From assembly GCF_044324875.1 (NCBI RefSeq), contig NZ_CP172185.1: a DNA stretch of 64,000 nucleotides; one strand, written 5' to 3'. Position 1 is the first letter of the stretch; each line of letters begins with the position of its first letter. This document shows, in pieces, positions 7,201 through 60,254 of the stretch. Both the position numbers and the translations under genes were made by a program. The notes under the pieces were generated by a model. It saw only the letters and a program-made list of their open reading frames with translations. It did no database searches and was not told where the DNA came from. This DNA comes from Escherichia coli (lineage in GTDB: Bacteria; Pseudomonadota; Gammaproteobacteria; Enterobacterales; Enterobacteriaceae).

Positions 7201-9447
7201 ATGCTCACTCGCCTGCGCGAAATAGTCGAAAAGGTAGCCAGCGCACCACGCCTGAATGAGGCGTTAAATATTCTGGTTACCGACATCTGTCTTGCGATGG
7301 ATACCGAGGTCTGTTCGGTTTACCTTGCCGATCATGATCGACGTTGTTACTACCTGATGGCGACCCGGGGGCTGAAAAAACCACGCGGTCGCACTGTAAC
7401 GCTCGCGTTTGATGAAGGGATCGTCGGCCTGGTTGGCAGGCTGGCGGAACCGATAAACCTTGCAGATGCGCAAAAGCACCCCAGCTTCAAATACATCCCT
7501 TCCGTAAAAGAAGAACGTTTCCGCGCGTTTTTAGGCGTACCAATTATTCAACGTCGCCAGTTGCTTGGTGTACTGGTGGTACAGCAACGAGAGTTGCGCC
7601 AGTATGACGAAAGTGAAGAATCCTTCCTGGTGACGCTTGCCACTCAGATGGCAGCTATTCTTTCTCAGTCGCAGTTGACTGCCTTGTTTGGACAATATCG
7701 CCAGACGCGAATCCGCGCATTACCGGCAGCGCCTGGTGTGGCGATTGCCGAAGGCTGGCAGGATGCCACGTTACCTTTAATGGAACAGGTGTATCAGGCA
7801 TCAACGCTGGATCCGGCTCTGGAACGCGAACGACTGACCGGGGCGCTGGAAGAAGCGGCAAACGAGTTTCGCCGCTACAGCAAACGCTTTGCCGCCGGTG
7901 CACAAAAAGAAACGGCGGCTATTTTCGATCTTTACTCGCACCTGCTTTCGGACACCCGGCTGCGGCGCGAATTGTTTGCCGAGGTTGATAAAGGCTCGGT
8001 GGCAGAGTGGGCGGTAAAAACGGTCATTGAAAAATTTGCCGAACAGTTTGCCGCGCTAAGCGATAACTATCTCAAAGAGCGGGCTGGCGATTTACGTGCG
8101 CTGGGTCAGCGATTGCTGTTTCATCTTGATGACGCTAATCAAGGGCCGAACGCCTGGCCGGAACGTTTCATTCTGGTGGCAGATGAACTGTCAGCGACAA
8201 CGCTTGCAGAGCTGCCCCAGGATCGCTTAGTCGGTGTTGTCGTGCGAGATGGCGCAGCCAACTCCCATGCTGCGATCATGGTACGTGCGCTGGGGATCCC
8301 TACCGTAATGGGCGCGGACATTCAGCCTTCGGTGCTGCATCGTCGGACGTTGATCGTCGATGGTTATCGCGGTGAATTGCTGGTCGATCCGGAGCCGGTA
8401 CTGCTGCAAGAATATCAGCGGCTAATTAGTGAAGAGATTGAACTTAGCCGTCTGGCGGAAGATGACGTCAATTTACCCGCCCAGTTAAAAAGCGGCGAGC
8501 GCATTAAAGTCATGCTCAATGCCGGTTTAAGCCCGGAACATGAAGAAAAACTGGGCAGCCGTATTGATGGCATAGGACTTTATCGCACTGAAATCCCATT
8601 CATGCTGCAAAGTGGTTTTCCGTCGGAAGAAGAACAGGTGGCGCAGTATCAGGGGATGCTGCAAATGTTCAATGATAAACCCGTCACCTTGCGTACGCTG
8701 GATGTCGGAGCAGATAAGCAGCTGCCTTACATGCCGATCAGCGAAGAGAATCCATGCCTGGGTTGGCGTGGGATTCGCATTACGCTCGATCAGCCGGAGA
8801 TCTTCTTGATCCAGGTGCGGGCGATGCTGCGTGCTAATGCCGCTACGGGCAACCTGAATATTCTGTTGCCGATGGTCACCAGCCTCGATGAAGTTGACGA
8901 AGCACGCCGCCTGATTGAACGTGCCGGACGTGAAGTCGAGGAGATGATCGGTTACGAAATTCCCAAACCACGTATCGGCATCATGCTTGAAGTGCCGTCA
9001 ATGGTATTTATGCTGCCGCATCTGGCAAAGCGGGTCGATTTTATCTCTGTTGGCACCAACGATCTGACTCAATACATCCTGGCCGTTGATCGCAACAATA
9101 CCCGGGTGGCGAACATTTATGACAGTCTTCATCCTGCAATGTTACGAGCTCTGGCGATGATCGCTCGGGAAGCGGAAATACATGGTATCGATCTCCGTTT
9201 GTGCGGTGAAATGGCGGGCGATCCCATGTGCGTGGCAATCCTCATTGGGCTTGGGTATCGTCATCTGTCTATGAACGGACGTTCTGTAGCGCGCGTAAAA
9301 TACCTGCTGCGGCGCATTGATTATGCCGAAGCAGAAAATCTTGCGCAGCGTAGTCTGGAAGCGCAACTGGCGACCGAAGTTCGCCATCAGGTTGCAGCCT
9401 TTATGGAGCGTCGCGGCATGGGCGGGTTGATTCGCGGAGGGTTATAG
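7201..9447 (+). CDS. ptsP: phosphoenolpyruvate-protein phosphotransferase EI-Ntr (GAF + PEP-utilising domains)
   Basis: 748-aa ORF immediately downstream of rppH; enzyme-I family sequence. Confidence 0.93.
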   Translation: MLTRLREIVEKVASAPRLNEALNILVTDICLAMDTEVCSVYLADHDRRCYYLMATRGLKKPRGRTVTLAFDEGIVGLVGRLAEPINLADAQKHPSFKYIPSVKEERFRAFLGVPIIQRRQLLGVLVVQQRELRQYDESEESFLVTLATQMAAILSQSQLTALFGQYRQTRIRALPAAPGVAIAEGWQDATLPLMEQVYQASTLDPALERERLTGALEEAANEFRRYSKRFAAGAQKETAAIFDLYSHLLSDTRLRRELFAEVDKGSVAEWAVKTVIEKFAEQFAALSDNYLKERAGDLRALGQRLLFHLDDANQGPNAWPERFILVADELSATTLAELPQDRLVGVVVRDGAANSHAAIMVRALGIPTVMGADIQPSVLHRRTLIVDGYRGELLVDPEPVLLQEYQRLISEEIELSRLAEDDVNLPAQLKSGERIKVMLNAGLSPEHEEKLGSRIDGIGLYRTEIPFMLQSGFPSEEEQVAQYQGMLQMFNDKPVTLRTLDVGADKQLPYMPISEENPCLGWRGIRITLDQPEIFLIQVRAMLRANAATGNLNILLPMVTSLDEVDEARRLIERAGREVEEMIGYEIPKPRIGIMLEVPSMVFMLPHLAKRVDFISVGTNDLTQYILAVDRNNTRVANIYDSLHPAMLRALAMIAREAEIHGIDLRLCGEMAGDPMCVAILIGLGYRHLSMNGRSVARVKYLLRRIDYAEAENLAQRSLEAQLATEVRHQVAAFMERRGMGGLIRGGL

Positions 9448-27953: not shown

Positions 27954-28030
<77 letters not shown>

Positions 28031-32351: not shown

Positions 32352-32558
32352 TAAAAAAAAGCACCGCAATTAGGCGGTGCTACATTAATCACTATGGACA
32401 GACAGGGTAAATGTACAGGAAGTGAAAAAAGGTAGCTTTGCTACCATGGTCTGAATCGCAGACCAATTGCAAACACAACAACACAACATCACAACCGTAA
32501 GCCAAAAGTTCACCAGAACACGCATTCCGATAAAACTTTTCGTTCCGGCTCAGGAAGT
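32352..32558 (-). ncRNA. gcvB: GcvB small regulatory RNA (Hfq-dependent, amino-acid transporter regulon)
   Basis: Reverse complement begins ACTTCCTGAGCCGGAACGAAAAGTTTTATCGG.., contains the GU-rich region GTTGTGATGTTGTGTTGTTGTGTTTGCAATTGG and ends in terminator GCACCGCCTAATTGCGGTGCTTTTTTTT; divergent from gcvA. Confidence 0.85.
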
Positions 32559-50021: not shown

Positions 50022-50567
50022 GTGGACGATTTGACCGCACAAGCCCTGAAAGATTTTACTGCACGCTACTGCGATGCGTGGCATGAAGAGCATAAAAGCT
50101 GGCCGTTGAGTGAGGAACTGTACGGCGTTCCTTCACCGTGCATTATTTCAACCACCGAAGACGCCGTATACTGGCAACCCCAGCCGTTTACCGGGGAACA
50201 AAATGTAAACGCGGTTGAACGCGCTTTTGATATTGTGATACAACCCACAATTCATACCTTTTATACGACTCAGTTTGCCGGGGATATGCACGCGCAGTTT
50301 AGCGATATTAAACTGACATTGCTGCAAACCTGGAGTGAAGACGACTTCCGTCGGGTGCAGGAAAATCTGATTGGTCATCTGGTGACTCAGAAAAGGCTAA
50401 AATTGCCGCCCACGCTATTTATCGCGACGCTGGAAGAAGAGTTAGAGGTGATCTCGGTGTGTAATCTCTCCGGTGAAGTGTGTAAAGAGACGCTGGGAAC
50501 ACGTAAACGGGCGCATTTAGCCTCAAATCTTGCGGAATTCCTTAATCAACTTAAGCCTCTTCTGTAA
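50022..50567 (+). CDS. syd: SecY-interacting protein Syd
   Basis: 181-aa ORF divergent from queF. Confidence 0.92.
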
Positions 50568-50777
50568 TCCAAATACCCCATCTGGTTGTGAGAGATCTCT
50601 TACAGACTCTGTAGGAGATCGCCAGGAAATAAGCGAATACTTAAAAAGATAAGAATCGTTATTTTCATTTAAAATCAATATATTGCTTGTTAATCCTTAA
50701 CTTTCATATTAAATTTTCCTTAAGGCATTGTCTGTAAGCGCCTTGTAAGACTTCGCGAAAAAGACGATTCTATCTTC

Positions 50778-51143
50778 GTCGACAGGGAGTCAGACAACGA
50801 AGTGAACATCAGGATGATGACACTTCTGAAGGACACACCAGGATGGTGTTTCAGGGAAAGGCTTCTGGATGAAGCGAAGAGGATGACGCAGGACGCGTTA
50901 AAGGACACCTCCAGGATGGAGAATGAGAACCGGTCAGGATGATTCGGTGGGTCAGGAAGGCCAGGGACACTTCAGGATGAAGTATCACATCGGGGTGGTG
51001 TGAGCAGGAAGCAATAGTTCAGGATGAACGATTGGCCGCAAGGCCAGAGGAAAAGTTGTCAAGGATGAGCAGGGAGCAACAAAAGTAGCTGGAATGCTGC
51101 GAAACGAACCGGGAGCACTGTGAATACAGTGCTCCCTTTTTTT
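50778..51143 (+). ncRNA. csrB: CsrB small RNA (CsrA-sequestering, multiple GGA motifs)
   Basis: About 366 nt with roughly 15-18 repeats of CAGGA(U/A/C)G-like motifs (catCAGGATGatg, acCAGGATGgtg, tCAGGATGatt, ttCAGGATGaag, ttCAGGATGaac, cAAGGATGag ...) and terminal hairpin gggagcactgtgaatacagtgctccc + T7; boundaries approximate. Confidence 0.85.
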
Positions 51144-51188
51144 ATTCCTGCTATTCTTCGCGGCAGTTTTTCTTATTGAGGTTGCTTT

Positions 51189-51518
51189 ATGACCACTCAT
51201 GACCGCGTTCGTCTCCAGTTGCAGGCGCTTGAAGCGTTACTGCGTGAACATCAGCACTGGCGAAACGATGAACCCCAGCCGCATCAATTTAATAGTACCC
51301 AACCGTTCTTTATGGACACCATGGAACCACTGGAGTGGTTGCAGTGGGTGCTGATCCCGCGAATGCACGATTTGTTAGAAAACAACCAGCCGTTACCGGG
51401 CGCTTTTGCCGTTGCTCCCTATTATGAAATGGCGCTGGCGACGGACCACCCGCAACGCGCGCTTATTCTGGCTGAGCTGGAAAAACTGGATGCTCTTTTT
51501 GCGGATGATGCGAGCTAA
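51189..51518 (+). CDS. yqcC: DUF446-family protein
   Basis: 109-aa ORF; conserved position upstream of truC. Confidence 0.85.
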   Translation: MTTHDRVRLQLQALEALLREHQHWRNDEPQPHQFNSTQPFFMDTMEPLEWLQWVLIPRMHDLLENNQPLPGAFAVAPYYEMALATDHPQRALILAELEKLDALFADDAS

Positions 51519-52300
51519 TGCTGGAAATACTCTATCAGGATGAATGGCTGGTTGCGGTAAATAAACCCTCCGGCTGGCTGGTTCACCGCAGCTGGCTGGA
51601 TCGCGACGAGAAAGTAGTGGTCATGCAAACCGTGCGTGACCAGATAGGCCAGCATGTGTTTACTGCTCATCGTCTGGACCGACCAACTTCTGGTGTGTTG
51701 TTGATGGGATTATCCAGCGAGGCCGGACGGCTGCTGGCACAACAGTTTGAACAGCACCAAATCCAGAAACGTTACCATGCGATTGTGCGCGGCTGGTTGA
51801 TGGAAGAAGCAGTTCTGGATTATCCACTGGTGGAAGAACTGGACAAAATCGCTGATAAATTTGCCCGCGAAGATAAAGGCCCACAGCCAGCAGTGACGCA
51901 TTATCGCGGTCTGGCGACCGTAGAAATGCCGGTAGCGACCGGACGTTACCCGACCACGCGCTACGGCCTGGTGGAACTGGAGCCGAAAACCGGACGCAAG
52001 CACCAGCTCCGTCGCCATCTTGCCCATTTGCGCCACCCGATTATTGGCGACAGCAAACATGGTGATTTACGCCAGAATCGCAGCGGTGCTGAGCATTTTG
52101 GCCTTCAGCGGTTAATGTTGCATGCCAGTCAGTTGTCATTGACGCATCCTTTTACTGGCGAGCCGCTGACTATTCACGCGGGCCTGGACGACACCTGGAT
52201 GCAGGCGTTATCACAATTTGGCTGGCGCGGTCTGCTTCCTGAAAATGAAAGGGTTGAGTTCAGTGCGCCATCGGGTCAGGATGGAGAGATAAGTTCCTAA
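51518..52300 (+). CDS. truC: tRNA pseudouridine(65) synthase
   Basis: 260-aa ORF, RluA-family motif [12 protein letters not shown]; start overlaps yqcC stop (TAATG). Confidence 0.92.
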
Positions 52301-57497: not shown

Positions 57498-60254
57498 TTA
57501 CCCGAGAATTTTGCTGGCTTCGCGCGCGACATTATCCATCTCGTCCAACAGTTCCAGCAGCTCCGGCTCCAAATCTTCTTCTTTAGTACCGCTACGTAGC
57601 TGTTGTTCGATCAGCTGGCAGAGATTCTTCATACGCGGCACACCGCTATAGCCGCAACTGCCATGCAGTTTATGAATCAAATCAACCAGGCCTTCCGGGT
57701 TTTCTCCAACCAGCTGTTCCTCAACTTTGTTGCGAACTTCAGGCAGGAAATCGAGTAACATTTGCAGCATATCGCGCGCTAAATCGGTTTTTCCTGCTGC
57801 CTGGCGTAGTGCCAGTTGCCAGTCGAGGGTCGCATTCGGGTTCACCACAATTTCGTTGACTTCGGGCGTCACGACGCGAGACGAAATACCGCTGCCAGGC
57901 TTGTAGCGCAACAACAAATTATGCAATCGCTCTTCTTCAATCGGTTTCGCCAGATAATCGCTCATCCCTGCGCCAAGCAGCTTCTCTTTTTGCCCGGCCA
58001 TTGCATGCGCCGTTACCGCGATAACTGGCGTTTGTTGCTGATGGGGGAGCTGGTGGATGAGTTCGCAGGCCCGAATGCCGTCCATGTCCGGCATTTGAAT
58101 ATCCATTAAGATCAAATCGAACGGCATCTGTTTCGCCCGTTCAACCGCCTGATGCCCGCTATCGCAAAGTTCCACATGTTGCACCATATCTTCCAGCAAT
58201 GCGCCGATAAGTTTCAGGTTAGCGGGGTTGTCATCAACCGCCATGACTGTCATTGCCAGCTTACTTTCATCGGTTACAGGCAAAAGCGTGTTTTGTTTGT
58301 GATGACAAAATTCCGTCAGGGCAGGTAACAGGCGCGTAGGTGTTAATGGTTTCAGCAGACACGCGCCGATACCATCTTGCTTAAGTTTTTCAGCATTGAC
58401 TTGTGCATGGCAAGGAAGTGCCAGCATCAGGAAATCGGTCATCGATACCGCTTTCGCTAATCGCTCATGTTGCATTGTTAGCGGCTCGCGGAAGGTCACC
58501 GCAATGCCTAATAACATCATGTCGTAATGCGCGGGAGGCAGCGCGGAGAACGTTGGGCTATAAACCACTTCCAGCGGCGTTTCACTTAAAATATCCAGCG
58601 TGCATTGCGCTGCTGCGGAGTTTGGTTCGACATAGGCCAGGCGCTTGCCGGCGAGGCACTGGGTGGATGGCCCTTCGATAATAATGTTCGGGTTCAGATC
58701 GAGATTAATGTGGAACCAGAAAGTTGAACCGCGATTCGGCTGGCTATGGAACGAAATATCGCCGCCCATTTCATTAACCAGTTTTTGTGTAATCACCAGC
58801 CCCAGCCCGGTGCCACCATGACGGCGGGAAATACTGGCATCAGCCTGTCGGAAGGCCTGGAATAAGCGCGATTGATCGCGTTCAGGAATACCAATGCCGG
58901 TATCCCGAATCTGCACTTCAATCTGCACTTTAGTATTACTCAGCGCACGTTTTTCTACCAGAATATCAATGTTGCCATTCTCGGTGAATTTAATTGCATT
59001 CCCTACCAGGTTAGTGATGATTTGCTGTAATCGCAGTGGGTCGCCAATTACGTTATCGGGCACGTCGCTCTTAATATTGAGCGTCAGTTCCAGCCCTTTA
59101 TCGTGAGAAGAATGTGCCAGCAGGGTAACGACTTCATCCAGCGTGCTGCGTAGTGGGAATGGAATACTTTCCAGAATCAGCTTACCTGCTTCCAGTTTCG
59201 AGAAGTCGAGAACATCATTAATAATTGCCAGCAAATTATTTGCCGAACGTTCAATCGTATTCAGGTGATCGCGCTGCGTTGGTGTTAATTCTGTTTTCAG
59301 CGTCAGGCGGGTAAAGCCAATAACACCATTCAGTGGTGTACGCAGCTCGTGTGACATATTTGCCAAAAACTCGGATTTAATACGCGCCGCTTCCTGGGCG
59401 CGCTTTTTCGCCAGATCCAACTCAACGTTCTGAATTTCCATCTGCTCCAGCGTTTCACGCAGATCGGACGTCGCCTGGTCGATATTGTGCTGCATCTCTT
59501 CGTGATAAGCAGCCAGCGACATTGCCATCGAGTTGATACCGTTTTTCAGCATATCCAGCTCGCCGAGCATAAATCCTTCCACCCGGCTGTCGAGTTGCCC
59601 GCGACGGATGCGGTCGACGGTATTCACCATGTTGCGAATCGGACCGGTTACATCGCGCATTAAGCGCCAGCCAAAAATAAGCGCAATACCGATACAAAAC
59701 AGCATCATCACGCTGGAAATAAAGATCTCTTTATATTGCTGCAAGCGAACCGATTTAAGATCCAGCTCCAGCGCAATATATCCCAGCATATTTTGACTAT
59801 TTTTGGCATCGCTACTGGGCGATTCGTCGGGGGAGTAACTCTCAGAAATAATCGGCGTGCGGAGGATCATAATATCGCCGTCACGAGTGACAGTGAGCTG
59901 GCGAGGAAACGGCACGTTGCTGCCGAGCTGCATTGATGAAGGATCAAGATGAAAATTGGAGGTGACAAAGAGTCGGTTATTTTCATCATAAACCGAAATC
60001 GCGCGAACAATATCGGAATGGCGACGATGCAGTACGCTTATTAACTGACCGATAGATTCGCGATTTTGCAGGCTCATGCCATATTCAGTAGAAACTGCAA
60101 GCGGCTCAATAATGCTGGCTCCGGCATCTTCCAGTTGACGCTGCAAGTCGTTATAGCGATGCACAACGAAAAAGATACTCAGCAATAAACCAATAAGGAC
60201 GGTCGGTGCCAGGATCAGAATCATCATGCGTGCGCGCAGGCTGTAGTTGGTCAT
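57498..60254 (-). CDS. barA: hybrid sensor histidine kinase BarA (HAMP-HisKA-HATPase-REC-HPt)
   Basis: 918-aa ORF with H-box ([12 protein letters not shown]), receiver and HPt regions. Confidence 0.95.

Follow-up and report, generated by a model that had tools for sequence, protein, structure and literature searches.

The csrB small RNA gene and its control elements between syd and yqcC on an Escherichia coli chromosome

In the window, the whole stretch of 64 kb of Escherichia coli DNA that was analysed, positions 50778-51146 on the plus strand are, with near certainty, the chromosomal csrB gene, whose product is the 369-nt RNA CsrB. The CsrB covariance model of Rfam (RF00018) matched 50787-51146 on the plus strand with 382.9 bits (E 2.2e-111), far above its gathering score of 71, and the match covered model positions 1-356 of 356 and is not truncated. 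The alignment with the csrB ncRNA of K-12 MG1655 (b4408; 2924156-2924524, complement, 369 nt) had 367 of 369 identical bases (99.5%), two mismatches and no gaps. The full-length Rfam match, the near-identity to K-12 and the synteny agree with one another, no result spoke against them, and they bear out a preliminary description of this DNA, which had named the RNA as CsrB and placed it at 50778-51143 (about 366 nt). The start given there is exactly the K-12-equivalent 5′ end (50778), but the end fell 3 nt short within the U tail, the K-12-equivalent 3′ end being 51146. The present analysis established the identity of the gene, its structure, motif content and context, and the conservation of its regulatory DNA.

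The gene has been known since 1997, and the original description of CsrB is reportedly that of Liu et al. of that year. The copy in the window is a common E. coli allele, which is already known and is not a new finding. Copies 100% identical over the 369 nt were present in many complete E. coli genomes, a csrB match was obtained in 5,425 of 5,426 E. coli genomes, and the 18-kb stretch around csrB had a best identity of 99.3% to any complete E. coli genome. The DNA therefore comes from an E. coli lineage without a close representative in that collection, or from a near relative such as Shigella, which a collection of E. coli alone would not tell apart. In the PGAP-annotated E. coli RefSeq genomes no feature is listed at the csrB match, and the ncRNA is present only in the curated K-12 record. 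This missing label is a systematic annotation gap and is not evidence that the gene is absent. Matches were also obtained on records filed as plasmids, at one place in the E. coli collection and at 7 in PLSDB (NZ_LN868944.1, LR134122.1, NZ_CP129771.1, CP125156.1, NZ_CP141089.1, NZ_CP134663.1, and NZ_OL790696.1; 0.57-5.4 Mb). The three PLSDB records that we inspected have the chromosomal queF-syd-csrB-yqcC-truC context. A plasmid-borne csrB was rejected, as the size and the chromosomal context of the PLSDB records mark them as mislabelled chromosomes or pieces of chromosomes.

The same gene order, queF-syd-csrB-yqcC-truC, is common to E. coli, Salmonella, and two Klebsiella species. In the window, the upstream neighbour syd, for the SecY-interacting protein, lies outside the RNA gene at 50022-50567 on the plus strand (PF07348, E 3.8e-73), and the downstream neighbour yqcC (DUF446) lies at 51189-51518 on the plus strand (PF04287, E 9.6e-35), followed by truC at 51518-52300 (PF00849). 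RefSeq agrees with all three assignments, and the location between syd and yqcC proposed in the preliminary description is thus confirmed by both Pfam and the RefSeq annotation. The sensor kinase gene barA is located in the same window at 57498-60254 on the minus strand, 6.4 kb downstream of csrB, and its product acts in trans. It was identified with the BarA equivalog model NF008318 of NCBIfam (1623.9 bits, cut-off 890) and is also annotated under the megablast match. The proximity of barA to csrB is the known K-12 arrangement. Rfam also found two other RNA genes in the window. One is a full-length GcvB sRNA at 32353-32558 on the minus strand (RF00022, 199 bits), which carries an 8-nt insertion (UUGUGUUG) in the GU-rich region relative to the Rfam consensus, and the other is a tRNA gene at 27957-28030 on the minus strand.

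The most conspicuous property of the RNA is its content of GGA motifs. The plus strand of 50778-51146 contains 22 GGA triplets, the minus strand 2. The number equals that of K-12 CsrB in a direct comparison, and 22 is also the published number for E. coli CsrB (PMC7652899). Among the 22 triplets, 14 are AGGA and 11 are AGGA[UAC]G. When 360-nt segments were slid along the 64-kb window, the mean GGA number was 4.8 (sd 2.4) and the maximum of 22 was at csrB, and AGGA[TAC]G, which averages 0.29 per 360 nt, had its maximum of 11 at the same place. Mononucleotide shuffles of CsrB still contained 12.0 ± 2.7 GGA (maximum 23), so the richness in G and A accounts for part of the excess, about half. Composition does not explain why the strands differ 22:2 or why the GGA triplets lie in loops.

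The counts depend on how the motif is defined. About 15-18 motifs of the CAGGA(U/A/C)G type had been proposed for this RNA, which holds under a loose definition, as 16 copies have the GGA core with up to two flank mismatches, but the strict CAGGA[UAC]G heptamer occurs only 9 times. With up to one flank mismatch there are 12 copies. The 1997 description reportedly counted 18 imperfect CAGGA(U/A/C)G repeats, a figure that the count of 15-18 echoes. The proposed motif spacing of 15-25 nt is approximate. Successive GGA triplets are separated by a median of 14 nt (range 4-32), and the strict motifs are 15-50 nt apart.

The GGA motifs are mostly exposed in the predicted structure. The minimum-energy fold of CsrB has -119.9 kcal/mol versus -97.6 ± 5.2 for the shuffles (z = -4.3). 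In this fold 9 GGA triplets are in hairpin loops and 10 are otherwise unpaired, so that 19 of 22 are predicted to be single-stranded. The other 3, including one in the terminator, are paired. The mean unpaired probability is 0.81 at the GGA triplets versus 0.44 for the whole RNA, and K-12 CsrB has nearly the same predicted GGA exposure. The strong rho-independent terminator of the preliminary description was also recovered. The terminator scan placed it at 51111-51143 on the plus strand, with a GGGAGCACUGU / ACAGUGCUCCC stem of 11 bp at 51111-51136 that contains 7 G-C pairs, a 4-nt loop, and a terminal run of seven U (T7 in the DNA).

Evolutionary evidence for the fold came from an alignment of 20 CsrB sequences, namely the window RNA and those of 19 genes that represent 17 further species of Enterobacterales, each confirmed by Rfam at 195-380 bits. 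All 19 of these genes have full-model matches to RF00018. In the consensus structure, compensatory double changes occur at 13 of 41 pairs. The hairpins with covariation support include those with GGA loops at alignment columns 98-112, 147-159, and 167-187, in addition to the terminator, where, for example, pairing at columns 373/394 is kept through compensatory changes as A-U, G-C, and C-G. The CsrB/RsmB orthologues of Salmonella, Klebsiella, Enterobacter, Hafnia, Erwinia, Pantoea, and Edwardsiella share with the window RNA the GGACACCUCCAGGAUGGAGA hairpin, a 3′ block extending from UCANGGAUGAGCAGGGAGCA to AAACGAAC, and the terminator, and the middle third is poorly alignable.

The motif number varies between taxa, as had been suggested. 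Within the Rfam span, the 19 genes contain 19-28 GGA triplets over a length of 302-380 nt. The number is 21 in the window, Escherichia albertii, Citrobacter, and Salmonella, 22-24 in Enterobacter, Klebsiella, and Pluralibacter, and 25-28 in Edwardsiella, Cedecea, Shimwellia, Enterobacillus, and Hafnia. The shorter RNAs of Erwinia, Pantoea, and Mixta (302-317 nt) have 19-23.

The window copy and K-12 CsrB have the same length, the same two ends, the same 22 GGA positions, the terminator, and the syd/yqcC flanks, and they differ at two nucleotides. At CsrB nucleotide 52 (window 50829), the base 5′ of the third GGA, there is A here and C in K-12, which changes CAGGAC to AAGGAC. At nucleotide 340 (window 51117) there is A here and G in K-12, converting a G·U pair of the terminator stem to A-U. 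The A at 51117 agrees with the Rfam consensus, and both substitutions are common to many E. coli strains such as 118UI. Upstream of csrB there are five differences from K-12, at 50679, 50682, 50686, 50695, and 50710, only the last of which is private. Position 50710, which is -68 relative to 50778, is T in the window and G in K-12 and in the best-matching strains. Complete E. coli genomes matched a 61-nt probe centred on 50710 in 5,152 cases, none of them at 100%. The T at 50710 is a private promoter-region SNP, located between the UvrY box and the putative -35 hexamer.

Upstream of the RNA we found the site through which the BarA-UvrY system is expected to act. The 18-nt palindrome TGTGAGAGATCTCTTACA occupies 50587-50604, with its midpoint at -183/-182 relative to the start of the RNA. 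It is identical in sequence and position to the UvrY-P site that was defined at E. coli csrB by footprinting and ChIP-exo (Zere et al., 2015; PMC4682653), and we annotated it as the UvrY-binding site by this match. The palindrome is invariant across the window, K-12, and strain 118UI. A partially conserved extra half-site, TGTAGGAGA, follows 5 bp downstream of the palindrome at 50610-50618, at the same offset as published (PMC4682653), and together with the right arm of the palindrome it constitutes the inverted repeat I1. The promoter is less obvious. A sigma-70 consensus scan of 50500-51300 found no promoter at threshold, as expected for an activator-dependent promoter. Placing the elements by hand relative to the annotated 5′ end of K-12, we propose that TTGTAA (-35, 50743-50748) and GATTCT (-10, 50766-50771), separated by a 17-nt spacer and with 6 nt to 50778, may form the weak sigma-70 promoter of csrB on the plus strand (50743-50771). 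The region from -67 to +1 is identical to K-12. The putative promoter falls inside the zone from -56 to +25 where UvrY crosslinking has been reported at csrB (PMC4682653).

The 3′ end carries the elements that determine the decay of the RNA in K-12, where CsrA bound at GGA sites 20 and 21 protects the RNA against RNase E (Vakulskas et al., 2016; PMC5027483). By the GGA count these sites are 51073-51075 and 51091-51093 on the plus strand (51073-51093 together), identical to K-12. The unstructured segment AAACGAAC that RNase E cleaves before the terminator was transferred from the same study (PMC5027483) through the gap-free K-12 alignment to 51100-51110 on the plus strand, with A327 at 51104 and A331 at 51108. 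This segment is invariant or nearly so in the 20 Enterobacterales sequences, and positions 51040-51116 of the window are identical to K-12, so that by sequence the same decay determinants are present. Taken with the UvrY box and the nearby barA, these determinants indicate that the whole known csrB control region is intact in this chromosome, as far as can be read from its bases.

We considered whether the locus may also, or instead, be read as a coding region, since three open reading frames exist mechanically. Two are on the opposite strand (50720-50908, 62 aa, and 50985-51200, 71 aa), and one is on the sense strand, starting from the first GGAUGAUG loop at GTG 50802 or ATG 50814 and ending at 50942 (46 or 42 aa). 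A dual-function CsrB, whose 5′ third would also be translated to a peptide of about 42 aa (MMTLLKDTPGW...ENENRSG, 50814-50942) in the group of Escherichia, Citrobacter, Salmonella, Klebsiella, and Shimwellia, is in our judgment very unlikely. The sense frame is indeed open for 41-70 codons in these genera (the seven closest sequences, counted from the conserved AUGAUG), but only 6-30 codons of it are left in Enterobacter, Pluralibacter, Cedecea, Mangrovibacter, Hafnia, Erwinia, and Edwardsiella, where the RNA is still conserved. Of the 19 sequences with a placeable start, 11 have a broken frame. In addition, its AUG lies inside a CsrA-binding loop without a spaced Shine-Dalgarno sequence, and conservation tracks the RNA helices through compensatory pairs and not the codons. 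High conservation of the nucleotides is the most likely reason why the 42-codon frame is open. That the stretch is a protein gene, with the two antisense frames or the sense frame as its coding sequence, is extremely improbable. Pfam matched none of the three frames, and no CDS is annotated at them in K-12 or in the PGAP genomes. In Salmonella the antisense frames have merged into one of 109 aa, and in Klebsiella they are missing or rearranged. The opposite-strand frames had been regarded as artefacts in the preliminary description, and the lack of a Pfam match and of a RefSeq protein, with the lack of preserved frames in Salmonella and Klebsiella, supports that view of them.

Another member of the same family of regulators could resemble csrB. 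CsrB and CsrC belong to the same Rfam clan (CL00106), and they have in common their GGA repeats and the presence of a UvrY site upstream (PMC4682653). The probability that the stretch is the paralogous CsrC or another member of the clan is nevertheless negligible. CsrB won the clan competition in Rfam with a full-model score of 382.9 bits, the identity to csrB of K-12 is 99.5%, and syd and yqcC are the neighbours expected of csrB. The palindrome upstream has the csrB form TGTGAGAGATCTCTTACA and not the csrC form TGTGAGACATTGCCGATA (PMC4682653). The identity as CsrC is refuted by the sequence identity and the synteny. There is likewise practically no chance that the stretch is a fortuitously GGA-rich intergenic sequence or a decayed, non-functional remnant. 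Composition does explain part of the GGA count (the shuffles above), but the 22:2 asymmetry, the loop-placed GGA, the folding z of -4.3, the covariation, and the fact that terminator and UvrY box are both intact speak against it. So does the conservation of the gene, which is nearly universal in E. coli (5,425 genomes) and extends to 17 further species of Enterobacterales. A genuinely disrupted allele, the csrB of E. coli MARGA_3 with its IS3-family insertion, looks different.

The MARGA_3 allele is a natural disruption of csrB (NZ_CM170101.1, locus L003, 1815-3278). The transposase of the IS3-family element is at locus positions 1815-2992, and the part downstream of the element matches csrB from nucleotide 92. 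The remainder of the csrB match is at a second place in the same record.

With CsrB as the identity of the RNA, its mode of action can be outlined from published work on the gene of K-12, which is nearly identical. CsrA binding, the activation by UvrY and IHF, and the decay through CsrD and RNase E are taken from that work. The BarA kinase would phosphorylate UvrY, which would bind the palindrome at -183/-182. UvrY-P, with the help of IHF, would then switch on transcription from a weak, activator-dependent promoter. The product would be the untranslated 369-nt RNA, in which short hairpin loops or single-stranded linkers hold most of the 22 GGA motifs. Every such motif may serve as a high-affinity CsrA site, and one CsrB molecule could tie up many CsrA dimers. 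From its 99.5% identity to the characterised K-12 RNA (PMC7652899; PMC5027483), the window RNA probably binds CsrA and sequesters several dimers in this way. CsrA would thereby be held from its lower-affinity mRNA targets, and its control of glycogen, biofilm, motility, and central carbon metabolism would be relieved. For the removal of CsrB, RNase E would cut the unstructured AAACGAAC that directly precedes the terminator. This cleavage would be blocked by CsrA at GGA sites 20 and 21, and CsrD would overcome the block.

Such a scheme has known relatives. CsrC of E. coli is a shorter RNA than CsrB, is encoded at a different locus, and has fewer sites. Like CsrB, it sequesters CsrA through multiple GGA motifs, is activated by BarA-UvrY, and is turned over through CsrD and RNase E (PMC4682653; PMC5027483; PMC7652899), but its UvrY palindrome is weaker and it has no IHF dependence (PMC4682653). 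In Pseudomonas, much shorter RNAs with fewer sites, RsmY, RsmZ, and RsmX, belong to other Rfam families and have no sequence-level homology to the window RNA. These RNAs are controlled by GacS-GacA. They work in the same way, as decoys whose GGA loops bind the CsrA homologues RsmA and RsmE (PMC7652899), and the pseudomonads have no CsrD orthologue (PMC5027483).

More interesting observations were made outside the window, for example in Enterobacillus tribolii DSM 103736, where three tandem full-length csrB genes are present with a period of about 611 nt (NZ_QRAP01000005.1, locus L080, 7700-9299, minus strand). The Rfam matches are at 7700-8078, 8311-8690, and 8922-9299 with 232-239 bits. Each copy has 27 GGA triplets, its own terminator, and its own upstream palindrome resembling a UvrY box (TGTGAGACATGTCTTACA or TGTGAGATATGTCTTACA). 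To our knowledge, a tandem triplication of csrB has not been reported in Enterobacterales.

For the window itself, csrB is a gene that PGAP leaves unlabelled in almost all E. coli genomes, and flagging it from the sequence was correct but rediscovers a known gene. As its RNA carries 22 GGA motifs like that of K-12, it would have the same CsrA-binding capacity, and the titration of CsrA by this RNA would be expected to be the same in this strain, with no strain-specific change in the Csr system arising from it.
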